A stretch of 64,000 nt of DNA, taken from a virus. Lineage: Duplodnaviria > Heunggongvirae > Uroviricota > Caudoviricetes. The stretch lies in IMG/VR virus record IMGVR_UViG_3300042914_002848; one strand, 5' to 3'. The first letter of the stretch is position 1. Each line of letters starts with the position of its first letter. Of the stretch, positions 719 to 54,600 are shown in pieces. The notes below the pieces were generated by a model. It worked only from the letters and a program-made list of their open reading frames with translations. It did no database searches and had not been told where the DNA came from. Both the position numbers and the translations under genes were made by a program.

Positions 719-3700
719 CTATAAGTATTTTATTGAAGAAAAAGAGTTTATTTTATTTATATCAATTATCTGGTCTACCATATCCCTCGTTTTATCTATG
801 TGGGATATCGTAATAATAAAATCAAATTGAGTTTTTAAATAATCAAATAGCAAATACAAAGAATTAAAATTATCAGTATCCAGTGAACCAAACCCCTCAT
901 CAATAGCGATAAAGTTTGGACGGGGTAGGTTGGATATACTAATTAATGCGGTTCTGATTGCGATTGAACTCACAAACTTTTCCATACCACTTGTCAACTC
1001 TAATGGCCAATACTTATCATCTCCATAGCAAATATATGAGTTGATGTTTTTACCATCGGTATCTAATATGATTTGGAAATCCACTATAGGTTGAAGAATA
1101 TTGTTAATTTCAATCTCCAACGTTGGTAATATTTCTGCTATCAATCCATATGGAATACCATCCCGCTTAACTGCTGATAAGTAGTGTTCGTATCCATTAT
1201 ACTTTAATTCCATTTGATTTAATTTTTTTACAGATTCATTTACAGACTCAATTGTATTTTTTTGAACACGTAACTCACCCAACAAATCTATTAAATCGGT
1301 TGTAACCTTATTTAATTCGGATTGAGTTTCCAATCTTTTTTGTTTTAGTGAATTAATTTCTTCATTAAGTTTGATGTTGAATTCAACCGATTTTTCTTGC
1401 TTTTTGGCTTTTTCAATGTTCGCAGATATTTTTTCGTATTGAGATTCGTATTGGTTATAATCGGATTTAGAATCATTTAATTCAGATAAAAGATTGTAGT
1501 ATTTGCGGTTTACCTCTTGCTCTTTTTCTTTGACCTGATTTACCTTATCCAACTCCGTTTTTACATCACACCCCTTTTGTGTTTGAACTTTTTCTGATAG
1601 TTCGGTTTCTAATACGGATATCTTTTTAGTTAGTGTTACTATTTTAGTTTCCAATTCCAAACTTTGCTTTGCAAATGGAGTGTTTTTATTTTTAACACAA
1701 TGTTCACAATTATCATCGTATGTAAAAGAACCAATACCATCCAAATGCTTTTTGGTATGTGATAGTTCAATCTGATACTTTGATATGGTTTGTTTTATTA
1801 ATGCGATATCCCGCTCTAAAACACGCCATTCATTATCTTTTGCTTTTAATTCATCTAAATCATACTCTTTATAGAACTCGCCAATTCTTTCAAGCTTTTC
1901 CTCTAATGGTTTTACTTGGGATTGTAACTCCCTTATATTGGATGATATTGTTCCTATAGAATTCCTACAATCTTTTAATTCGGCATTTAATAACTCTAAG
2001 TTCAGATTACCATCCACCACAATTAACTTTGCAGACTTATCCTCAATTTGGTTGTGTATATTGTTAAGATTAGTTTCAAAATTTATTTTTTTGTTTTCCA
2101 AATCAGAAATAGAACCTGTTATAGATTGAGATACTAATTCGGCCTTAGCCAACTTTGTTGGAAAATCTTGCCCCTTATAATCTTTCAGTAAGGTTGATAA
2201 CTCCTTTATTTCTTCACTTGCTACTGAATACAATTGCTCAAACACATCCATATCCAAAAATTGAGCAAGTAACTCTTTTCGTTCTTTTTGTGATTTATCA
2301 ATAAAACCACTATTGTTAAATTGAGTTGAGAGAGCAGTCAATATGAAATCATCATATGTTCCTACATACTGCCTAATAACTGAATTTGTATCTCTTCTTT
2401 CATCACCATTCAAACTTTCAATATCACCCATATCATTGAATGTGTAAAATTGAGTATCAACTTTTACAGTTCCCTTTTTGGTGGATTTATTTGCGGTTCT
2501 CTCAATTACATAATCCCTGCCATTTAGTTCAAAGATAAACTTACAATAAAAATTGTTTTTAGAATAATTCATCACATCAACTGCTTTTGATGTTCGGGAG
2601 CACTTATCAAAAATACAAAAGGATAAAGCATCCCACAAAGAAGATTTACCACTTGCGTTGGGAGCAAATACACCATACGCCCCTTTCATATTTTGAAAGT
2701 TTATATAGTTATCTTCCCCATAAGAAAACATATTTGAGAATTGAAATTCTTTTGGAATCCAAACCGAACTCCGAATTGCATGAGGATTTACAATCTTTGA
2801 GTTTATATCAGCGTTTATACCTTTGACAACTTCTAAAGCTTCTGAATCAATACCAAACTTTTGGGTCAAATAATCTTCCAATAGTTTATTTTGAAATCCA
2901 ACATCCCTTACATTATGTAGAGTTATATGTTCTCGTTTTCCAACTTCGTTTGTAGATAAAACTTTCTGAATACTTAACTCTTCTATTTCATATTTCTTTT
3001 TTAAAGAAGATACAATTTTATTCAACTGTGATGTGGTTGTATCTTTAACCCTTAATCTTAATCTTGGCTTTGGGCAAATGTAATTATTTGATACGATTTT
3101 ACCATCTTCAATATCAATAGTTCCATACCCATACGCATTCTCAATATGAACGAATGTGGAGGACTTTGTTGGTACATCCCATACCAATATCCCATGCTCA
3201 GGATAAATTGATTCTGAGTGGTTCTGTGTAATCAGGGAGCCTGGGTACTTTATAGTATCCACACCTGATACTGAATTATTGGGAACATGGATATCTCCCA
3301 AAAGAACAATATCATATCCTTTAAAAGAATCCACCGTAACTTTTTTGTTATCAATCTTAAATCCATGCTCAGTTTGTATTCCATCAACGGGTCCGTGATA
3401 AAGAGCGATTTTAAAATCCCCATCAACGCCCGAACTATTTGTAAATCCATCCGATGAATCGAATACTGATTTGTGTGCGAATACGATGCCACCAAACTCA
3501 AAGGTTGTAGTGTTTTTGTAGTAATATAAGTTTGGGTGATTTAAAGCATCAACAATTGGTGATAACGCATCTAACCGAGAAGGGTTATTTAGATTTGCAT
3601 CGTGGTTGCCAGGAATTAAAATGGTGGGCATGATATCCGATAAATTTCTCAAAAAGTTTTGAGTCATATGTACCACCTCCGGCGTCATATCGGTTTTAGC

Positions 3701-3859
3701 GTGAACTATATCCCCAGCTAATACAATAGCAGAGTCTTCAGTTACAACTGATTTTAAGTAATCATATAAACGATTAAAAACTAAAGAATACTCTTTATGT
3801 CTTTTTAAGTTTCGTATATGAACATCAGCAATATGATAAATCTTATTTAACTTTTTCAT
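719..3859 (-). CDS. Fused SbcD/Mre11 nuclease - SbcC/Rad50 ATPase (T4 gp47-gp46-like)
   Basis: N-terminal metallophosphoesterase motifs DVH, GD, GNHD, GDIH; Walker A APNASGKSS; coiled coil with CEHC zinc hook; signature LTSGMEK; Walker B IAIDEGFGSLD. Confidence 0.92.
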   Translation of the reverse strand: MKKLNKIYHIADVHIRNLKRHKEYSLVFNRLYDYLKSVVTEDSAIVLAGDIVHAKTDMTPEVVHMTQNFLRNLSDIMPTILIPGNHDANLNNPSRLDALSPIVDALNHPNLYYYKNTTTFEFGGIVFAHKSVFDSSDGFTNSSGVDGDFKIALYHGPVDGIQTEHGFKIDNKKVTVDSFKGYDIVLLGDIHVPNNSVSGVDTIKYPGSLITQNHSESIYPEHGILVWDVPTKSSTFVHIENAYGYGTIDIEDGKIVSNNYICPKPRLRLRVKDTTTSQLNKIVSSLKKKYEIEELSIQKVLSTNEVGKREHITLHNVRDVGFQNKLLEDYLTQKFGIDSEALEVVKGINADINSKIVNPHAIRSSVWIPKEFQFSNMFSYGEDNYINFQNMKGAYGVFAPNASGKSSLWDALSFCIFDKCSRTSKAVDVMNYSKNNFYCKFIFELNGRDYVIERTANKSTKKGTVKVDTQFYTFNDMGDIESLNGDERRDTNSVIRQYVGTYDDFILTALSTQFNNSGFIDKSQKERKELLAQFLDMDVFEQLYSVASEEIKELSTLLKDYKGQDFPTKLAKAELVSQSITGSISDLENKKINFETNLNNIHNQIEDKSAKLIVVDGNLNLELLNAELKDCRNSIGTISSNIRELQSQVKPLEEKLERIGEFYKEYDLDELKAKDNEWRVLERDIALIKQTISKYQIELSHTKKHLDGIGSFTYDDNCEHCVKNKNTPFAKQSLELETKIVTLTKKISVLETELSEKVQTQKGCDVKTELDKVNQVKEKEQEVNRKYYNLLSELNDSKSDYNQYESQYEKISANIEKAKKQEKSVEFNIKLNEEINSLKQKRLETQSELNKVTTDLIDLLGELRVQKNTIESVNESVKKLNQMELKYNGYEHYLSAVKRDGIPYGLIAEILPTLEIEINNILQPIVDFQIILDTDGKNINSYICYGDDKYWPLELTSGMEKFVSSIAIRTALISISNLPRPNFIAIDEGFGSLDTDNFNSLYLLFDYLKTQFDFIITISHIDKTRDMVDQIIDINKINSFSSIKYL

Positions 3860-4800
3860 TTTCTCCTAAACATTTTATACTCCACTAAACTTAACAAATT
3901 CAATTCAGGTGTATTGTATATTTTTGTGTTTATCTTATCGTAACCTAATTCAGATGCGTCCTCCGAACCCAACTGAACTAAGTGAACTTTAATCCCCCAA
4001 CCCATTAGTTTTTCGCATAGTTGGATAGAGTTATTAATAGCATCGGAATCTAAGCAAACATAGATACGGGACACTTTTTTATCTAAAATTTTCTTTTCTA
4101 ATTTAGGTGGAATGGTTTTACCAAAAATAGGAATTGCGTTTCTACGAATTGCGATTGCATCAAAAACACCCTCACAAATAACAATTGGTTCATTCCAATT
4201 CACATACAAATCAAACCCAATAATATCTTTGGATACTTTTGGATTTTTATGCTTTTGTGGTGTATCATAAAAAGCCCTACTAACAAAGTAATTTAACATA
4301 CCATCTGAATCGTATGAGGGAATAATAATTTTATTACTATATTCACCCTCAACACAATACCCCATTCCATACTTAACAATATCACCAGGTCGGATTCCCC
4401 TACCTAAAATGTAATTTAAGGCGTGCGAATAAATAACGGACTTGGATGATTCCCAAAGAGGAGTAAACTCTTTTGGTAGTTGAACAAATGTTTGTTGTTG
4501 TGTTAATTGTTCAGTCGGTTGTGTGTATTTTCCAATGTTTCTGAAAATAGAATTGTATTCATCCCATATTTGCGAAGATACATTTAGTTTTTTAAAGAGA
4601 GAACGAATCGTTTTTCCCTTTTCATCCGATATCCAACAATGCCAAGGGTTATCACCAGCAGCCGTTGTTTTTATGTTTATTTCAAGCTTTGGTTTGTAAT
4701 GTTCGGCAAATGGTGAATAAAAAGCATAGTTATCCCCAGTGGTTTTTTTACTTTTACCCAAAACCCGTTCTAATAACTCAATCAATCTTTCTTCTACCAT
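3856..4800 (-). CDS. DNA primase (DnaG/Toprim type)
   Basis: ICEGVFDAI and CLDSDA Toprim motifs; N-terminal SPFAEH...WHCW degenerate Zn-binding region. Confidence 0.85.
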   Translation of the reverse strand: MVEERLIELLERVLGKSKKTTGDNYAFYSPFAEHYKPKLEINIKTTAAGDNPWHCWISDEKGKTIRSLFKKLNVSSQIWDEYNSIFRNIGKYTQPTEQLTQQQTFVQLPKEFTPLWESSKSVIYSHALNYILGRGIRPGDIVKYGMGYCVEGEYSNKIIIPSYDSDGMLNYFVSRAFYDTPQKHKNPKVSKDIIGFDLYVNWNEPIVICEGVFDAIAIRRNAIPIFGKTIPPKLEKKILDKKVSRIYVCLDSDAINNSIQLCEKLMGWGIKVHLVQLGSEDASELGYDKINTKIYNTPELNLLSLVEYKMFRRK

Positions 4801-5401
4801 TTCTTAAATCGTAAGTATAAATATACTTTGGTAAGTTAGTAATTATTTTTACATTCTCATCACCCGCTTTGTATCTCCTATTTATTTCAACCCCATAAGG
4901 TCTATCCAACATAGAAAGGGTTCTAATGTGAAATGATTTACCATCCACCTCCAATGATTTTGATGGAGATGTTTCACCTAAATAATTAAAATTAGAAGCA
5001 CGATAGATAACCCCCTTATGCCCCTGATTTTGGTCTGCGTAACTTATTATATATTCCCAATCGGTATTTTTTTGTAACCACTTGATTGTTTTAGATATAA
5101 AATAGGATTCAGCGTTTTTTGGTGTATCATCTACCAAACACAACCTCCGTAACTCCAAAACCTTATCGGGACGGGATGGGTGATATGTCTGCCCAGCAGA
5201 TGGACCTGCGGGGCGTGTGTAAATACAAACCCCAATTATTTGGGGCATACCAAAATTTCCTTCCCTAAGTAGAATAAATGCGTGTTTTGTTTGTATATTT
5301 ACATAATCAGAGTAGTGCCACTTTTTCAAAAAGGCACGAATGTTCTCATTAAATGTAGTATGTTCTACTGTGTATGTTTTTACTAAACCCATTCTACACA
5401 A
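4778..5401 (-). CDS. Mom-family (GNAT-fold) DNA adenine modification protein
   Basis: ELRRLCL..DTPKNAESYFIS...IISYADQNQGHKGVIYRASNF matches the Mu Mom-like family pattern. Confidence 0.8.
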   Translation of the reverse strand: MCRMGLVKTYTVEHTTFNENIRAFLKKWHYSDYVNIQTKHAFILLREGNFGMPQIIGVCIYTRPAGPSAGQTYHPSRPDKVLELRRLCLVDDTPKNAESYFISKTIKWLQKNTDWEYIISYADQNQGHKGVIYRASNFNYLGETSPSKSLEVDGKSFHIRTLSMLDRPYGVEINRRYKAGDENVKIITNLPKYIYTYDLRNGRRKID

Positions 5402-34433: not shown

Positions 34434-36002
34434 CTAATTTTTTATAATACGCGTTGTGTAATTTCCCGATGGTGTTGTGATATTAACAAAAAGAATACCA
34501 CTTACATTATCTACGATAGTAACCATTGAATGGTTTTCATTGTATGTAATATCCGATTGAACATTAGAACCCATAATATTAAATACTGAAATATTTGTAA
34601 TTCGTTCACCGCATTCTACCATAAATTCATTTTTAATTGGATTGGGATAAACATTCATTCGGTTTGAAATCTCCATATAACGAACCGATGTCCTAATTGT
34701 ATCTGGGTTGAAATTAGACCAACCACTCGTCCAGTCAGATTGACCAAACGCACCACGATGGGTAACGGGCGTAAAGAAATTATTTGAAATTCGGGGATTT
34801 GAAAAAGAAGCACCTGTTAATAGAATACTATTTTGTTGTGGTAATAGCTGTGGGTTTGTTAGGCTATTATAACCCGAAGATAATCCGATTTGGGATGTAC
34901 TATCAAATATCTCATTTCCTCTCAAAGTATCACCAAAATAATTCAACATCCCAGCCCAAGTATTCGTACCTTGTGTTTGTTCAAACTTATTAGTCATATT
35001 AGCAAATACCACTCTTTCAATTTGGAGTGAATCATTAGTCGCATTTAATTGAGCCGATGAACCATCAATATGCAATCCAGTCGGATATCCCATAAAAAGG
35101 GAATTGTAGACCGATGTACGGGTGTTCCTACGAAGATGTAACGCCCTACGATAAAGAGAAGCAGGTCCACCATTTTCTTTTGGGCCGATGATAGTTACAT
35201 TAGAAAATATCGGAGCAGTTTGTGGTGTGTTTGAAGTCCCTGTTCCATCGTTATCGGATTCAAATCCGTTTGATTGAGATTGGTCTGCAATCTGCGGGTC
35301 ACGCATTGAAAGAGCAAATTGAACTTTTCCTCTATAACCAAAATCAGTATCAAAATCATCATCCCATCCACGATGGGCAATCAAGTACTTACAATTGACT
35401 GTACCACCAAACCATTCATAGGAATCATCACCAGAATAGGATACTTGAACATTCTCAACCACAGTCTTACTACCAACCCCACCAAATGTCAATCCATTGA
35501 TTTCACTATTGGGTTGATATGCTATGCCGGGAAATTCAATGCGGACATATCTAAATACACCCGAACTATCTTCATCATCAGTTCCACCATAAGTAGCATC
35601 TTGTCCTAAGAGCCCACCTTCAATAATACCAACTCCACCAGGAATGTTTGTTGTAGCGTTTCCTAATATTACAACCCCACCCCAATCACCATAAGTACGC
35701 TGCCCTACAGTTTGATTGGATGTAAAGATAATTGGTTGAGCCGCCGTTCCGTTTGCATAGATGCGGCCGTTTTTTGTAATAATAAGCGTTCCCTTTGATG
35801 CTTTATCACCTCTGATAATTGTACCAGGTTCAATTGTTAGTGTTGCGCCATTCTTTACAAACCGATTACCTTCTAATAAATAAATTGTTCCACTATTCCA
35901 AGTGGTGTTTGTTGTAATATCTGTTCGGATGGTATCAACTGTAGTTTGCGCTTGTGCGAAACTAAACATGCTCAAAAGAGCGAGAATAAAACTTTTTTTC
36001 AT
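34434..36002 (-). CDS. Secreted beta-helix protein with T9SS type A C-terminal sorting domain
   Basis: Signal peptide ending AQA-Q; GDWGGVVILG, GDDSYEWFGG, DDDFDTD repeats; C-terminal VYPNP...G..F..I....G....RIIKN. Confidence 0.85.
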   Translation of the reverse strand: MKKSFILALLSMFSFAQAQTTVDTIRTDITTNTTWNSGTIYLLEGNRFVKNGATLTIEPGTIIRGDKASKGTLIITKNGRIYANGTAAQPIIFTSNQTVGQRTYGDWGGVVILGNATTNIPGGVGIIEGGLLGQDATYGGTDDEDSSGVFRYVRIEFPGIAYQPNSEINGLTFGGVGSKTVVENVQVSYSGDDSYEWFGGTVNCKYLIAHRGWDDDFDTDFGYRGKVQFALSMRDPQIADQSQSNGFESDNDGTGTSNTPQTAPIFSNVTIIGPKENGGPASLYRRALHLRRNTRTSVYNSLFMGYPTGLHIDGSSAQLNATNDSLQIERVVFANMTNKFEQTQGTNTWAGMLNYFGDTLRGNEIFDSTSQIGLSSGYNSLTNPQLLPQQNSILLTGASFSNPRISNNFFTPVTHRGAFGQSDWTSGWSNFNPDTIRTSVRYMEISNRMNVYPNPIKNEFMVECGERITNISVFNIMGSNVQSDITYNENHSMVTIVDNVSGILFVNITTPSGNYTTRIIKN

Positions 36003-37780: not shown

Positions 37781-37824
37781 ATAAATATACAAAATAAATT
37801 TTAATTATCCAAATTTATTTTTTG

Positions 37825-40250: not shown

Positions 40251-40346
40251 GATGGTTTTTTAGTGAGAACCAACTCAAGAACTAAACAAATATACGAATA
40301 AATTTTTAAATTTCCAAGCTTTCAATATTAAATTTGCGTTAATAAT

Positions 40347-43848: not shown

Positions 43849-44307
43849 TTAGAATTCGCCATAATTTACCTGAAAGCATGCAATTCCCCTATCCCGCCAC
43901 ATCTTTACTACCTTATCCCTATCATCAAAAACGCAGAGGATTTTATTACCATCATTAAGTAATTCATCCAACCACCCGGATTTCAGTACATCATCGGGAG
44001 TGTAATCTTTTTGAGGTCGCATATGAAGAAAATCGTAATCTACTCCATTGGATTTCAACCAAGCTTCAGTTTCGGTTTTGGATATTGAATCCCTACCCGA
44101 AAAAATACCTACAGTATATCCGGCCGATTTCATTGCGGAAAAGGCCGAGATAACAGGCAGATTCGGTTTATCCAACTGAATGTTTTGTGGGTCAAAAAAT
44201 ACACCCCAATTTAATTTACCATTCTGCTTTGTTGCTTTTTCTCGCCTAGCATCAATTAAGGCAAGAGTACCATCCAAATCAAATATAACTATAGTTTTCA
44301 TATACAA
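43849..44307 (-). CDS. HAD phosphatase (T4 PNK 3'-phosphatase-like)
   Basis: FDLDGTL, SGR, MRP..D..PD...K, FDDRDKVV.MWR..G. Confidence 0.9.
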   Translation of the reverse strand: MYMKTIVIFDLDGTLALIDARREKATKQNGKLNWGVFFDPQNIQLDKPNLPVISAFSAMKSAGYTVGIFSGRDSISKTETEAWLKSNGVDYDFLHMRPQKDYTPDDVLKSGWLDELLNDGNKILCVFDDRDKVVKMWRDRGIACFQVNYGEF

Positions 44308-44336
44308 ATATACAAATTAAATTTTAAATATCCAAA

Positions 44337-45380
44337 TTAAAGTTTAGAAAATTTAGGTTGGATTATTTTCCATATCAACCTCGAATAATCTTTATAATCA
44401 TACATCTTAAATAAGATTGCCGGGTACTTATGCTTTTTAGCAAGTTCAGCGAACCTGGCACGATTTTCAAATTCATCGGATTTACTAAGAATCCTAAATA
44501 TCCAAATATATTCATCCTCTATTTTATTGTATTTATCCACCAACTTATTTGAGTATTGGCGAATCTTATCATAAAATTCATCGGGAACATCGGTTAGGGT
44601 TGATAGAATATCACCACCATTAGAAAGAACTTCCCATACTGCGGTAGTAGAAAGGTGGGTCATTATTCGGTGAAGTCTTAAATATTCTTCACCTTTTATT
44701 TTAACCCTATCACCATTTGAAAAACGAACTACGAATCCTTCCTGATTGTTTTTTACCATACCTTTTAATAGGTTGTAGTTAGATATAGTATCGTATTTCT
44801 TTACTAAATCCCAACCTTTAAAAGTAGCTGGTTCACCCCAATAAATTTCAAAAGTAGATGAATCATCTCGCAAAATTTCTTCACCGGTATCGGTTTTAAT
44901 AGCAGCAAGTAAAACAAGTCGGCTCACTCCACCATAATCAACAACTATCCTATTTTCGGGATAGATTATCTCAAACAGGTAGGTGTAACCATCTACTAAA
45001 ATTTCAGAAAAATTATACCTATCACCCCAATTAGCCATCCATATAGCTTGTTCGGATGTGAACGAACCACGAGTAGCATAAACAGCCCGGCCTTCCCACA
45101 TAAAAACGATTCCTAAAGAACCATCCATTTTTTCAAAAACCTCAAACTTTTGGGTTGGTGTATGCTTTTTCTCTTCAATATTAAAAAACTTTTGGAATGG
45201 ACGAGCAACTATTTGACCACTACCATCAGTAACAAGACCTCTACATTGTAAAGTAATCTCATCCCACAAACCTTCATATTGAACCTTTTCGGTATAGTTC
45301 CATATAGTAAGTGGTAAGGTTGGGTGAATCTGCGAATATAACAATCCCCTCTCCTTATAATCATTTAATATATCTAACAT
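44337..45380 (-). CDS. RNA ligase (T4 Rnl1/RnlA family)
   Basis: CRGL, ARPFQKFFN, EKMDGSLG, TRGSF, FEIIYPENRIVVDY, EGFVV, RVKIK. Confidence 0.92.
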   Translation of the reverse strand: MLDILNDYKERGLLYSQIHPTLPLTIWNYTEKVQYEGLWDEITLQCRGLVTDGSGQIVARPFQKFFNIEEKKHTPTQKFEVFEKMDGSLGIVFMWEGRAVYATRGSFTSEQAIWMANWGDRYNFSEILVDGYTYLFEIIYPENRIVVDYGGVSRLVLLAAIKTDTGEEILRDDSSTFEIYWGEPATFKGWDLVKKYDTISNYNLLKGMVKNNQEGFVVRFSNGDRVKIKGEEYLRLHRIMTHLSTTAVWEVLSNGGDILSTLTDVPDEFYDKIRQYSNKLVDKYNKIEDEYIWIFRILSKSDEFENRARFAELAKKHKYPAILFKMYDYKDYSRLIWKIIQPKFSKL

Positions 45381-45396
45381 ACTAAATTTTATCTTA

Positions 45397-46525
45397 CTAA
45401 TTATAGAATAATCCTTCAGATAACTTAATGCTTAATGTATGGTCCATATAATCCCACGCGTGCATTCCTGCTATTTCCCTTAGTTTACTATCTCTAGCTA
45501 ACCACATAACACTATCATATTGTAATTCCCCAATATAATTGGAGGATTTCATTTGTTCCAAAATTGCGGAAACCGATAAGGGATACTTATCAGCCTGTCC
45601 TTCAATTACTGCTTTAGCTTCCTGCTTCAATCGCTCAAATAGATTTTTCATAATTTTTATTTTTTAATTTACAATGTAAAGATATTACAGAAAGAGCAAT
45701 TTTCCAAGCTTTCAATATTAAATTATCGTTAAGTTTTTCTCAATAATGAGACGAACCCGTTCCCTATCAACGGAATCAAATTCAATGTCGCTTAATGGCA
45801 TGCTTTCCAAATACTCATTACAGGCGGCAATAATCCCCTTTTTTGTAGTAAGTGGGTAAATACCATTACGCAACTCATAAAAAGTTATACAATATTTGTA
45901 AAACTCTTTGATTAAAACTGAATATTTTTTCATATCTTTTTTTGTTACATAGTAAAGATACTACTAAAACCCCATATTTCCAAGCTTTTTTCCCAAAAGT
46001 TATCCACATTTTAGGGTTAAAAAGTGTCCAATATATTGGACAGTTCTTATTGACCTTGGGTCTGTGAATCTACAATCCCAAAAACCTCACTTATAACCGA
46101 AACAATTCGATATGGGATTATTTTATTTATTATCTACTCAAAAATGATAGTTGAACTTCTTTTAAAAGTTTCCTGCCCAATTTTTTATCAGTACGCAAGG
46201 TAGATTTGTTTTTTACACTCAATAATGTATTAGCCCTCACCAACTTTTCTATTTCAGTTTCGTTGTAACCCATACTTTTCCACGTCTCAATTAATTTACT
46301 TTCGATACCCCTAAGTTGTTCACTAATCTCATTTTCCATATGAGATTGGTTTATCTTAAAAAAGATATTACCACGCCTTATTTTATCCAAAAAAGAATAA
46401 CCCATACGGGACATGCAAAAGTGTTGGTAAATCTGCCTACGTTGGTTATAATCCATACCTACCATCTTTTTTTCCATAATTTCTACCGTTTCTTTGAAAC
46501 GGTACCTTTTATTATTTGCACACAT
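45397..46525 (-). other. Three small early ORFs, each with its own promoter (45397-45651, 45718-45933, 46130-46525)
   Basis: Promoter-like sequence immediately upstream of each. Confidence 0.6.
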
Positions 46526-46633
46526 AGTTTTATTGTTTAATATTTTTTATTTAGTTAGTTATTACAAATATACGAAGTAAATTTTAATTTTCCAAATCTC
46601 AATAGAAAAATTTACTACTCATATTTGAGGACG

Positions 46634-46795
46634 TTAGTGTTCAGTTTGTTTTCCGCCACATAATAAACATAATGATATTGCGTTATTACTACTTATATAA
46701 CCAGTTCCTTTACAATTAGGACAAACCGAAACACTAACAACAGATATATTCAATTGTTTTCGTCTTTTAAATAAGTTTTTAATAAATTTTATCAT
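46634..46795 (-). CDS. Cassette-encoded 53-aa Zn-finger-like peptide
   Basis: MIKFIKNLFKRRKQLNISVVSVSVCPNCKGTGYISSNNAISLCLLCGGKQTEH; not in the ORF track. Confidence 0.6.
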   Translation of the reverse strand: MIKFIKNLFKRRKQLNISVVSVSVCPNCKGTGYISSNNAISLCLLCGGKQTEH

Positions 46796-46860
46796 TTGTT
46801 TTTCATTTTTAAGTTTGTATTCAACTGAATATATCTGAAATATGTTAGTGATAATAAAAA

Positions 46861-47106
46861 TTAAATCAATCCTTGTTTCTTTAACATATTTACGATTGCC
46901 TCTGCTGCTGCCTTAACTGAATCAGGGTCTTTTTCCATATCACCATCTTTCATAGAATAAGGCACATATCGTAAATATACTTCATCATCAATTATATCTT
47001 TAATCATATCAATAAGTTCTTGCTCATTTTTACTATCACTAACATCAGATATATTCAAGTTTTCTTGATGTTCGTTGAAACTTTGTATGTGTCCTTTACC
47101 TTTCAT
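46861..47106 (-). CDS. Cassette-encoded hypothetical protein
   Basis: Starts in the attC loop; LNISDVSDS is encoded by the attC arm. Confidence 0.65.
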   Translation of the reverse strand: MKGKGHIQSFNEHQENLNISDVSDSKNEQELIDMIKDIIDDEVYLRYVPYSMKDGDMEKDPDSVKAAAEAIVNMLKKQGLI

Positions 47107-47177
47107 CTTCGTATTTTATTTTAGTGTATATATTAAAAAAGAAAACCTAAATATATCTGTGGTCGTTATACACAATA

Positions 47178-47393
47178 TTACTTGCTATTATTTATGTCGT
47201 CTAGGATTTTGTGAAGTCGCTCAACTTCTTCCTTTGTAAAAACAAGCATCCTAAGATTTGTCTTTTCACCATTTACATAAGTATCACAAAATCCATTTTC
47301 ATCTCGTTCACCGCAAGTAATACTATGTATAACAGCAGGTTTAGTTAATTGCTTATCTCTGCTTCTAAATAAGTTTTTAATCCAATTAATCAT
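47178..47393 (-). CDS. Cassette-encoded hypothetical protein
   Basis: Starts in the attC loop; QLTKPAVIHS is encoded by the attC arm. Confidence 0.65.
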   Translation of the reverse strand: MINWIKNLFRSRDKQLTKPAVIHSITCGERDENGFCDTYVNGEKTNLRMLVFTKEEVERLHKILDDINNSK

Positions 47394-47754
47394 TTGTATT
47401 TCAATTTAAGTTTTTTACTAATTTTACGCAACTAACCAAACCTGCGTAACGTTAGAAACAATTATGTCTAACTATTTCTAACAGCAAATATAAGTAATAA
47501 ATTTTGATTTTCCGAATCTCCAAAGAAAAATTTACCACTCATATTTGATGGCGTTATGTGTAATAAATTAAAACTTTAACAGCAGTGCCATTATAGTTAA
47601 ACTTATTACGCCAATTAATATCATTTTTTTGGCGTGTTTAGCACCAATCATTTTACTTTCAACAAAATCATCTGTTGTCCATAATACAAACCCTGCTGAT
47701 AAAAATAAACACCCAAAAACTAAAAAGAAATTTTGTATAAACATATCGTAAGTT

Positions 47755-48051
47755 TTAATTTAATCGTTCAAAGATATGACCTACAAATTCACCCCTCTGG
47801 TACTGATAGGTCCCAATGTATTTTCTTTCAATTCCCATATCCTCGTGAATAGTGTGTCCAGTTCCATAAAGCTCAAAGAATCGGTCCTCCATCTCAGCTT
47901 GTGGATTAACTAATGCCCAAATTGTCGGATGGTTATTTTTTTCGTCAGTCTGGATGGTTAAAATCTCTGCGCCCTTTGGCATTTGCAAAGTAAACTTTTC
48001 CTTGAACCCTTCTATAAGGGTTGAAAATTTCCAAATTGTTTTCATATTCAT
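47755..48051 (-). CDS. Conserved phage hypothetical protein
   Basis: MKTIWKF..LQMPKGAEIL..IWALV..GTGH..YIGT. Confidence 0.65.
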   Translation of the reverse strand: MNMKTIWKFSTLIEGFKEKFTLQMPKGAEILTIQTDEKNNHPTIWALVNPQAEMEDRFFELYGTGHTIHEDMGIERKYIGTYQYQRGEFVGHIFERLN

Positions 48052-48137
48052 TTTTTTAACTTACATAGTAAAGATACAACAGAAAACCCATATTTCCAAG
48101 CTTTCAATATTAAATTATCGTTAAGTTTAGGTTAAAG

Positions 48138-48635
48138 TTATTCACAAACAAGGTGATTTTTTACCCGTTTTTTAACCACACTACCTATCAGTATTTCACC
48201 CCGGTCCAACACCTGGTCTAACTCAATCGTTGTCGCATAATAGGATGTAGAACCTGAAGATACCCAGTCACCCTTCTTTAAATTCACAAAGAAAACAAAC
48301 CATTTCATATCCTCCCCACTATCATCATACGAAACTAATAAATAATCCGATTCCCTTTTGGAATATTCTCCCCCCCTCCATACCCCAACCGTCTTAGCTG
48401 TTTTAATCTCCAACGGAACATCCCCTACCCATAAATCAGGTTCACCATCCGTAAAAGGAGAACGGATATTTGGAACGATATCCGAAAATGTTGCCTCTAA
48501 AATATTTGATATGATTTCAGACCGTAATTTCGTAGATAAATGATTGTAATGAACTACGGACTTGAATACCTTTAACCGATTGTTCGCTTCGGTAAGTACG
48601 GCGGGCAGGTGAACCCTAATGTAATCTATTATCAT
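48138..48635 (-). CDS. PD-(D/E)XK endonuclease-like protein
   Basis: E...EPDLWVGDVPLEIKT. Confidence 0.65.
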   Translation of the reverse strand: MIIDYIRVHLPAVLTEANNRLKVFKSVVHYNHLSTKLRSEIISNILEATFSDIVPNIRSPFTDGEPDLWVGDVPLEIKTAKTVGVWRGGEYSKRESDYLLVSYDDSGEDMKWFVFFVNLKKGDWVSSGSTSYYATTIELDQVLDRGEILIGSVVKKRVKNHLVCE

Positions 48636-53575: not shown

Positions 53576-54600
53576 ATCTCTTGTACTATATAGTACTAGT
53601 AGTAGTATATAGGAGATAGAACCCCCCACCCCTTTTTAGCGCCGGAGTTCTTATAGTATATACTATATAGTAGTAGTATATAGTAGTAGCGCTGGAGTTG
53701 ATTGGTTGATAATCATCGGATGTGGAGTTCTCTCTCTCTTGTACTATATAGTACTAGTAGTAGTATATAGACACACACACACACATACACATACTAAGCG
53801 CTCTCTTAAAGTTCTCTTAACCCTTCTCTTAACCCCTCTCTTATCTATATACTATATAGTAGTAGTATATAGTAGTAGTAGCGCTGAGAAATAAACCAAA
53901 AATAAATTCACCATTGTTATAACACCCCACAACTATATAATAACATTGTATAGTATATACTATATAGTAGTAGTAGTATATAGAGAGACAGAGTAATCGC
54001 TTCTCTATATAGGATACATCATAACAATTTTTTATATTCCCCCCTCGCCACGCCTTACATTGGTTGTGATATGTTAGGTATGATGTGTGATGTGTTAGCC
54101 CCAGCGCAAAATAATCGTGTGTTAGGAGCAATGAAATGAGTGTTATGGGAACGCTAAGGGGTGTTTTTTTGTTGTTATCATTTTTCCCCCAATATTTATG
54201 GAAGCTATATTTTCCGAAATTTGATACAGCTCTTCTAACTGATTTTTTGCTACACATTACCCTGTCATTATTGGGTATTTATTACCATTCTCCACCCTAT
54301 CACACCAGTCACATTCCCTATCCGGCTCTATTCCCATTTTTGATACCCCTTTTTTCTATCGGTTCTTTTAATGTTTTTACCCTACCATATACTATAAAGT
54401 GGGGGAAAGTGGGGAATTGTGGGAAATTTCTCTATATTATACTTACTTTACCTAGCTATTTTACTTTCTTTTGGGTGTTGTGGGTTAAGTGGGAATATTG
54501 TTAGTGTATTACTATAGTATATACTACTACTACTACTACTTGTTGTACTTATACTACTTGTCTTCTATATACTATTATTAGTATTACTATATAGTATTAT
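53576..54600. repeat. Low-complexity non-coding region with TACTATATAGTA(GTA)n repeats (origin/terminus-like)
   Basis: Five copies at 53584-53985, inverted copies near 54510-54600; CA, CT and CTCTTAA microrepeats. Confidence 0.8.

Follow-up and report, generated by a model that had tools for sequence, protein, structure and literature searches.

An orphan array of integron-like hairpin cassettes in a large Bacteroidota phage and its probable link to an Xer-like recombinase of related phages

A region of approximately 1 kb from the genome of a large Bacteroidota phage was analysed within a 64,000-nucleotide stretch of the IMG/VR record IMGVR_UViG_3300042914_002848 (the window, i.e. the whole stretch at its full length of 64 kb). 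This region (46565-47563) is occupied by an array of imperfect hairpins situated between one open reading frame (ORF) at 46130-46525 and another at 47568-47744. Four hairpin sites with both cores and a fifth module at the low-coordinate end, lacking the left core, could be recognized, and an inverted-repeat search of the window showed that the three small ORFs of the array are surrounded by an unbroken chain of inverted repeats. All genes of the window are encoded on the minus strand. The array most probably (with a probability of about 0.78) represents an orphan set of four cassettes of an integron-like system that is widespread in large Bacteroidota phages and uses an Xer-like enzyme cutting at TAAC|G. 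Its features are as follows.

46565..46632, minus strand: array-end module A1, a promoter-type hairpin with arms at 46565-46585 and 46607-46627 and no TAAC core at its low-coordinate side; its minus-strand promoter TTTG-N19-TATATTTG drives ORF 46130-46525
46634..46844, plus strand: cassette 1, 211 bp, from the TT of G|TTAGTGTT to the next G; its stem GTTAGTGTT / AACACTAAC pairs 46633-46641 with 46731-46739
46634..46795, minus strand: ORF1, 53 aa, with a CxxC...CxxC arrangement; its start codon lies in the hairpin loop, and the TAAC core provides its stop codon TAA
46731..46850, plus strand: site 1, attC-like, consisting of AACACTAAC, AA, a 16-nt arm, a 65-nt loop, the second arm, AAATAT and GTTAGTG
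46845..47165, plus strand: cassette 2, 321 bp, the ends of which pair over 20/21 nt
46861..47106, minus strand: ORF2, 81 aa, with a 25-aa leader (MKGKGHIQSFNEHQENLNISDVSDS) from the site loop and arm, followed by a variable domain
47033..47172, plus strand: site 2, attC-like, consisting of TATCACTAAC, AT, a 21-nt arm, a 72-nt loop, the second arm, TGGTC and GTTATACA
47166..47451, plus strand: cassette 3, 286 bp, the ends of which pair over 23/24 nt
47178..47393, minus strand: ORF3, 71 aa, with a leader (MINWIKNLFRSRDKQLTKPA) similar to that of ORF1
47327..47459, plus strand: site 3, attC-like, consisting of TGTATAAC, A, a 20-nt arm, a loop, the second arm, GTAAC and GTTAGAAA
47452..47553, plus strand: cassette 4, 102 bp, without ORF and nearly all site; its minus strand has a promoter of the Bacteroidota type (TTCG...TATATTTG) directed into cassettes 3 to 1
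47476..47559, plus strand: site 4, attC-like and of the promoter type, consisting of TTTCTAAC, AG, a 21-nt arm, a loop, the second arm, ATGGC and GTTATGT
47553..47563, plus strand: last core GTTATGTGTAA, the high-coordinate end of the array, with no complementary partner beyond it

On the plus strand the four sites follow one format, in which nnnTAAC, 2 nt, an arm, a loop of 65-72 nt, the second arm, 5-6 nt and GTTAnnn succeed each other, and the asymmetry of the spacers (2 nt on the left, 5-6 nt on the right) is constant in all four. Read on the gene-sense (minus) strand, the order of a module is TAAC, G plus 4 nt, arm, loop, second arm, 1-2 nt and GTTA. The sites lie within 830 bp and measure 78-129 nt from TAAC to GTTA, with arms of 16-21 nt forming up to 16-21 pairs. 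The inverted-repeat search recovered the arms of site 1 (46741-46756 / 46822-46837, 16 nt, 94% complementary), site 2 (47046-47066 / 47139-47159, 21 nt, 90%) and site 3 (47335-47355 / 47425-47445, 21 nt, 86%), as well as the repeats of site 4 (47482-47510 / 47522-47550) and of A1. An original prediction, made from the sequence alone, had listed five hairpins bounded by nnnTAAC and GTTAnnn; all sequences quoted in it were recovered at their positions, and four of the five hairpins have both cores, while the fifth (46565-46641) has the GTTA side only.

The bases 3' of each G|TT are complementary to the left core of the next site. This chained complementarity, predicted over 8-10 nt, turned out to be longer, forming stems of 11-24 nt with scores of 11/12, 20/21, 23/24 and 14/14 when G.T pairs are allowed on the gene-sense strand. 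Two of the chained pairs were also returned by the inverted-repeat search (46842-46861 / 47026-47045, 20 nt, 95% complementary; 47165-47185 / 47313-47333, 21 nt, 90%). For the last core, ACACATAAC was sought across the window as a partner and not found. Measured from G|TT to G, the cassettes are 211, 321, 286 and 102 bp long, in agreement with the predicted sizes of about 210, 320, 285 and 100 bp. Core-flanked hairpins with at least 14 pairs occur four times in the window, each time within the array, and not at all on its opposite strand; 200 shuffles of the 64 kb yielded a total of 15 such hairpins. A chance origin of the hairpin array is thus excluded. A scan of 46000-48200 against Rfam gave chance-level matches only, and a search of a GenBank phage collection returned a single match of 61 nt, to a 642-kb uncultured phage.

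All sites share a single orientation relative to transcription. The array genes are antisense to the G|TT strand and have their start codons, leaders or promoters within the sites: each ORF begins in a hairpin loop, crosses the 3' arm and the GTTA core in a fixed frame (GTT encoding Val) and terminates at or shortly before the next TAAC. Sites 1-3 provide leaders and no promoters. Site 4 is a direct repeat of A1 (72 nt, 86%); both carry the Bacteroidota -33/-7 promoter and flank the array, and their stems are not G+C-rich terminators. A promoter-type site like that of cassette 4 was also found after TAAC in other arrays. No Pfam or PHROG family could be assigned to ORF1-3, except for a hint of a zinc ribbon in ORF1, which has a weak match to the DnaJ CXXCXGXG domain below the cut-off; the homologue search with ORF1 returned distant relatives only and was uninformative on cassette boundaries. 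Partial copies (88-91%) of the promoter half of A1 and site 4 precede other genes of the window (37783-37814, 40286-40317 and 44303-44337), and the promoter-type site therefore appears to be built on an ordinary phage promoter.

The same family of sites was found in many other phage contigs of IMG/VR. The nearest relative of the window, G002 (161 kb), is syntenic and about 79% identical in core genes, and its similar sites are confined to a hypervariable stretch of 14 kb, all on one strand. A 23-base pattern taken from the ORF2 leader region matched 56 IMG/VR contigs of up to 318 kb. The leader and 5' region of ORF2 recur in many contigs, joined at the GTTA core to unrelated C-terminal parts, of which there are at least 12 in the first set of loci; overall, 47 distinct variable parts were collected. 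For 42 of these 47, the first codons pair with the part's own 3' end over 13-26 nt, and beyond the core these stems comprise 582 Watson-Crick, 52 G.T, 1 A.C and 11 other pairs. Position 11 is a G.T pair in every stem listed, the G always being on the 5' side and the T on the 3' side. Among 199 distinct hairpin sites from the fetched loci, 3588 Watson-Crick, 344 G.T and 37 A.C pairs were counted on the sense strand. TAAC is followed by G in 191/199 and GTTA is preceded by T in 197/199, the left spacer is 5 nt long in 153/199 with 1-2 nt on the other side, and site length ranges from 48 to 229 nt (median 122). Three types can be distinguished, i.e. leader-bearing sites, promoter-bearing sites and bare 48-nt hairpins. 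In integrons the recombined strand is marked by extrahelical bases and an unpaired central spacer; the family has a constant asymmetric spacer (5 versus 1-2 nt) and a fixed G.T / A.C mismatch at stem position 11, which differ from the canonical extrahelical bases. The site family is widespread in large phage contigs. Ten cassette proteins of the longest array described below (L108) include one with a YopX domain.

Of 401 Flavobacteriaceae genomes, four contain a single isolated hairpin of the short type, and within 1.5 kb of it neither an array nor a recombinase was found. These solitary hairpins (L191-L194, in genomes G333, G288, G132 and G247) have the same TCGTTTTAATG loop, and two of them possess flanking cores that are complementary to each other, e.g. 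AAGGCTAAC...GTTAGCCTT; they could be insertion targets or relics.

Evidence for exchange of discrete cassettes was obtained from several comparisons. Loci L056 and L096, from different metagenomes, share 99.9-100% identity over 1948 and 726 nt, but one of them has an additional cassette of 392 nt, consisting of a hairpin and its closed segment; the junctions are CCTAAC|GGTTGG and TTATAAC|GGCTGC, and the cut lies within the shared TAACGG. Indels of this kind, with breakpoints at G|TT, had been named in the original prediction as the observation on which it would stand or fall, and the prediction has thus withstood its own test. Cassette 3 is 90.7% identical over 47164-47463 to a part of L044, and it is the sole match between this foreign 6.2-kb locus and the 64-kb window; the unit was also found in a third context, L043 (89.9%), and the limits of sharing are at most 12 nt from both G|TT sites. 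Site 1 has a counterpart in L195 with 94.5% identity. Cassette 2 has a 94.6% identical counterpart at another genome position in G002, the similarity starting exactly at 46844, to be compared with the 79% of the core genes. Between unrelated contigs, 457 of 1577 left ends of similarity fall at TAAC (about 1.3% expected), and right ends fall at GTTA. Matches of shared variable parts extend into the upstream hairpin and stop at TAAC, never the reverse, so that the cassette unit is the one drawn in the original prediction. A gene-oriented unit, composed of a variable part and its downstream hairpin, was considered as well and rejected on the same observation. Within the window's own lineage the array locus is hypervariable, since L214 is 100% identical across the array while L204 and L205, 99.5-99.7% identical to the window downstream of 46597, have other cassettes at the same locus.

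A gene for a tyrosine recombinase (PF00589) was present in four of five large site-bearing contigs, one in each, at 1-3.5 kb from a leader site, and an Xer-like gene ends the arrays in 18 of the 56 short fetched loci, where it is always co-oriented with the cassette genes and lies downstream of the sites. This supports the original idea that the units are serial cassettes with boundaries at G|TT and that a tyrosine recombinase from another place moves them. The array of L108 leads up to the recombinase gene with about 20 hairpins, which alternate with 14 closed segments. In 12 loci the stretch separating the recombinase gene from the last TAAC holds a single copy of a conserved attI-like motif, TAAC-TATnATATATnnACA, immediately upstream of the gene, so that the order on the G|TT strand (recombinase in reverse, special site, cassettes) is that of an integron. 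The recombinase is 266-270 aa long and possesses the catalytic motifs R, HxxR, H and Y. The highest-ranking matches were to XerA/XerC-like proteins and, in two pieces, to integron integrases; with every NCBIfam model its score was under the cut-off. It can be aligned end to end with the XerA-like protein 4a8e. In the alignment to IntI4 (2a3v), residues 18-172 correspond to 17-175 and residues 214-262 to 265-313. Judged from these sequence features, the enzyme belongs to the Xer/IntI clade. No match to an HUH Y1 transposase (PF01797) or a serine recombinase (PF00239) was obtained in five large site-bearing or related contigs. Relatives of the recombinase with 40-53% identity are encoded in Bacteroidota genomes and metagenome-assembled genomes, where no arrays were detected in the flanks, and no short-type site was found in five Bacteroidota genomes with such relatives.

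Some recombinase genes appear to be incomplete. In L099, L109, L067 and L057 the match to the Xer-like protein begins only at about residue 104-112, and in L099 at least a leader site precedes the gene by some 190 nt; these genes may be truncated, or a cassette leader may have become joined to their catalytic half. In L106, L088 and L091 (IMGVR_UViG_3300027793_000052 and a relative) the match is split over two frames at residue 133/134, which suggests a frameshifted recombinase gene beside an otherwise intact array.

The ends of each cassette were joined in silico and the circularised junctions were folded as single-stranded DNA. On both strands the fold comprised an R stem (18-22 pairs) and an L stem, separated by an asymmetric internal loop, in addition to a large loop. 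The gene-sense strand, which is the bottom strand by integron convention, was more stable for all four cassettes, with -21.3, -22.3, -29.2 and -15.0 kcal/mol for cassettes 1 to 4 and -18.4, -19.3, -20.0 and -12.8 kcal/mol for the other strand.

Integrons are defined by an integrase (IntI) with an additional alpha-helical I2 domain, attC sites of 57-141 bp and an attI site beside the integrase gene. Their cassettes are mostly promoterless and expressed from a common promoter (Pc), with genes co-oriented with the attC top strand. Two or more attC sites in a row without an integron integrase nearby form a cluster of attC sites lacking integron integrases (CALIN). With both, the array shares imperfect hairpins with inverse cores (nnnTAAC / GTTAnnn here, RYYYAAC / GTTRRRY there), a second pair of arms, an asymmetric unpaired spacer and a variable loop; in cores, second inverted repeat and length its sites correspond to attC, and the cassette boundaries lie at G|TT. 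Further features in common with integrons are cassettes whose first bases are complementary to the inverse core of their own site, cassette-sized indels cut at the core, cassettes without ORF and, in the relatives, a tyrosine recombinase of the Xer/IntI clade together with a distinct conserved site at one end of the array. Like a CALIN, the array of the window is without an enzyme. There are clear differences as well: the R stems are 11-26 nt long with a fixed G.T at position 11 (A.C on the other strand), instead of 7 bp with extrahelical bases; the genes are antisense to the top strand and receive a promoter, or a start codon and leader, from the site and not from a Pc; the putative attI-like motif is found in recombinase-bearing relatives only; and the carriers are large phages. 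The enzyme of the relatives lacks the I2 region and therefore falls outside IntI, so that the system is integron-like and not an integron.

An Xer-type reaction on folded DNA is known from the CTX phage, where XerCD, an enzyme without I2 helix, acts on the attP hairpin of single-stranded phage DNA. That reaction integrates one genome at dif and forms no cassette arrays, and no dif-like sequence was identified here. The I2 region has been described as the innovation that enabled single-strand recombination (PMC7790495). In virulent phages, including Polaribacter phage P12002L, CALINs of 2-3 sites have been predicted with IntegronFinder or HattCI and assayed for recombination by IntI1 (Qi et al. 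2023, PMC9892861); they share with the present array the attC-like sites in lytic phages, the missing integrase nearby and, in one case, a Bacteroidota host, but a linked Xer-like recombinase, an attI-like motif, leader-encoding sites and long arrays were not described there. The promoter early stem-loops (PeSLs) of T4-type phages are repeats of a promoter and a stem-loop on either side of small ORFan genes in hyperplastic regions, where they bring about a shuffling of modules (PMC2839356, PMC4122927). They have in common with the array the repeated promoter and stem-loop modules and the possibility that direct repeats such as A1 and site 4 excise a circle, but they have no conserved cleavage core, cassette-specific inverted repeats or linked recombinase, and their stem-loops are terminators. 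Small CALINs in virulent phages are thus already published; a description of Xer-linked cassette arrays was not found in the literature searched.

A cassette consists of one hairpin module and one segment closed by its own inverted repeat, and the hairpin loop supplies the following gene with a promoter, or with a translation start and a leader of about 20-25 aa. In the mechanism that we propose, cutting and joining would take place at the TAAC|G core (G|TTA on the plus strand of the window). After circularisation, both ends and the hairpin could form one long imperfect hairpin with an R stem, an internal loop of 5 by 1-2 nt and an L stem, following the logic of attC. The enzyme would be the Xer-like tyrosine recombinase that related phages encode downstream of their arrays, next to the attI-like motif. 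The architecture, the covariation, the sharing of discrete cassettes, the one-cassette indel at the core and the linkage of recombinase and arrays are shown; catalysis by this enzyme, single-strand folding and the strand used are deduced from them. Because neither the recombinase nor the attI-like motif is present in the window or its nearest relatives, the array is regarded as an orphan, comparable to a CALIN. Recombination at this locus would need the enzyme in trans, supplied by the host, by a co-infecting phage or by the part of the genome outside the window; alternatively, the array may now change solely by homologous recombination between conserved modules. A further-reaching version, for which we see about even chances, is that the phages run their own analogue of the integron, in which a short Xer enzyme without I2 recombines folded single-stranded hairpins, the sites act as portable promoters or start-leader modules, and orphan arrays are serviced in trans. 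Start-less gene fragments would then become expressed upon insertion at such sites, and the service in trans would create a pool of small early-gene cassettes common to phages, possibly for host takeover or counter-defence. The suggestion of the original prediction that cassettes feed the early region of the phage is plausible.

Several observations weigh against the interpretation as a recombinase-driven array. No tyrosine recombinase was found in the 64 kb by tblastn with the Xer-like protein of the relatives, G001-G005 have no PF00589 match (G002 being 84% and G004 100% complete), tblastn of G002 with the same protein was also without a match, and TAAC-TATnATATATnnACA has no match in the window at up to 2 mismatches; the expected recombinase is thus missing from the window and from G001-G005, and was found at array ends of related phages instead. 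The enzyme of these phages is about 48 residues short at the position of the I2-region insert of IntI4. In the 99.5-99.7% identical relatives the breakpoint at 46597 lies inside promoter module A1, the similarity of cassette 2 to its counterpart in G002 ends at 47122, upstream of ORF2, and the variable part of cassette 2 is found, 98.2% identical, behind a different leader in L204, with about 25 nt shared, which indicates an exchange at the junction of leader and variable part. The breakpoint at 46597, the variable part of cassette 2 behind another leader and a lineage without recombinase would be expected if only the regulatory modules were conserved and the genes were swapped by the general homologous recombination of the phage, without a site-specific enzyme, as published for the PeSLs of T4-type phages; the direct repeats A1 and site 4, with their promoters at both ends of the array, also fit. 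As the exchanges at 46597 took place inside a promoter-type module, homologous recombination between conserved modules evidently acts at the array as well. As the only process, it is unlikely, because it leaves unexplained the covarying inverted repeat of 13-26 nt in each variable segment, the fixed G.T at position 11, the invariant TAAC-G and T-GTTA cores with their spacer asymmetry, the tight linkage with the recombinase and the attI-like motif, and the one-cassette indel cut in the core.

The excess of G.T over A.C mismatches on the sense strand (about 9:1) is a further point on the opposing side, since it fits equally well a selection on mRNA structure. The stems could serve mainly the mRNA, the hairpins exposing start codons in open A/U-rich loops and the long-range stems insulating the cistrons, and the signatures of recombination would be secondary; the more stable folding of the sense strand, the start codons and leaders in the loops and the uniform orientation of the sites to transcription are in line with this. 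The sense strand is, however, also the bottom strand of an integron, so that the same bias suits DNA folding, and linkage with a recombinase and an attI-like motif, cassette indels at the core, empty segments without ORF such as 47452-47483 and 48-nt hairpins without start codon are not predicted, which makes a main role in mRNA distinctly improbable. A true CALIN, acquired from a bacterial integron and used by a classical host IntI, would account for the AAC/GTT cores, the two arm pairs, the lengths in the attC range and the chained complementarity, and IntI1 did recombine sites of the CALINs reported in virulent phages (PMC9892861). It is very improbable given the Xer-like enzyme without IntI insert in the relatives, R stems of 11-26 nt and not 7, reversed genes starting inside the site, no IntI found in the window, G001-G005 or the large site-bearing contigs searched, and no arrays detected next to the nearest bacterial homologues of the recombinase. 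Segments of 65-170 nt between inverted repeats of 16-24 nt also recall an inverton or shufflon, in which each repeat pair would flip its segment and switch a gene on or off (cassette 2, when flipped, would read leader-VSDNKN-stop). This explanation is hardly credible and was rejected: among the stems listed, the G.T pair at position 11 has one polarity throughout and no flipped state occurs, and all sites keep one orientation.

The genes encoded in the rest of the window, including an Rnl1-like ligase, a Pnk phosphatase, a fused Mre11/Rad50, Mom, ThyX, a dCMP deaminase and a protein with a type IX secretion system (T9SS) sorting domain, fit a large virulent-type phage of Bacteroidota. Three of them are a fusion of a Mre11-like phosphoesterase and a Rad50/SMC-like protein (719-3859, 1046 aa), a Mom-family protein (4778-5401) and a protein of 522 aa (34434-36002), the last of which supports a Bacteroidota host because it ends in a T9SS C-terminal sorting domain. 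Apart from the array, long inverted repeats are concentrated in the window only at 53580-53973, where direct and inverted copies of a unit of 16-22 nt (CTTGTACTATATAGTACTAG and relatives) are densely packed. A second family of intergenic repeats, of about 95 nt, is located upstream of small genes (48035-48131, 45925-46045 and 45644-45739); it has at least 7 copies in the hypervariable region of G002, and a 91.5% block shared with G002 begins at the copy at 45644. The small hydrophobic ORFs adjacent to the array differ between the window (47568-47744, 58 aa) and its 99.5%-identical relative L205 (722-910, 62 aa), being of similar character.

The window provides a clean, small and intact orphan array with near-identical and polymorphic relatives in metagenomes, and the cassette content of the locus differs between phages with 99.5% identity in flanking genes. 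Standard assays of the attC x attI type in laboratory strains would allow a direct test of the system. Its sites are portable expression modules with a promoter, or a start codon and leader, and such a combination of recombination site and translation signal is unusual. If the Xer-like enzyme does recombine the hairpins, cassette capture of the integron type would not be tied to the IntI lineage or to I2, which bears on the origin of integrons, and the fast replacement of small ORFan genes in the hypervariable regions of phages would have a concrete mechanism.

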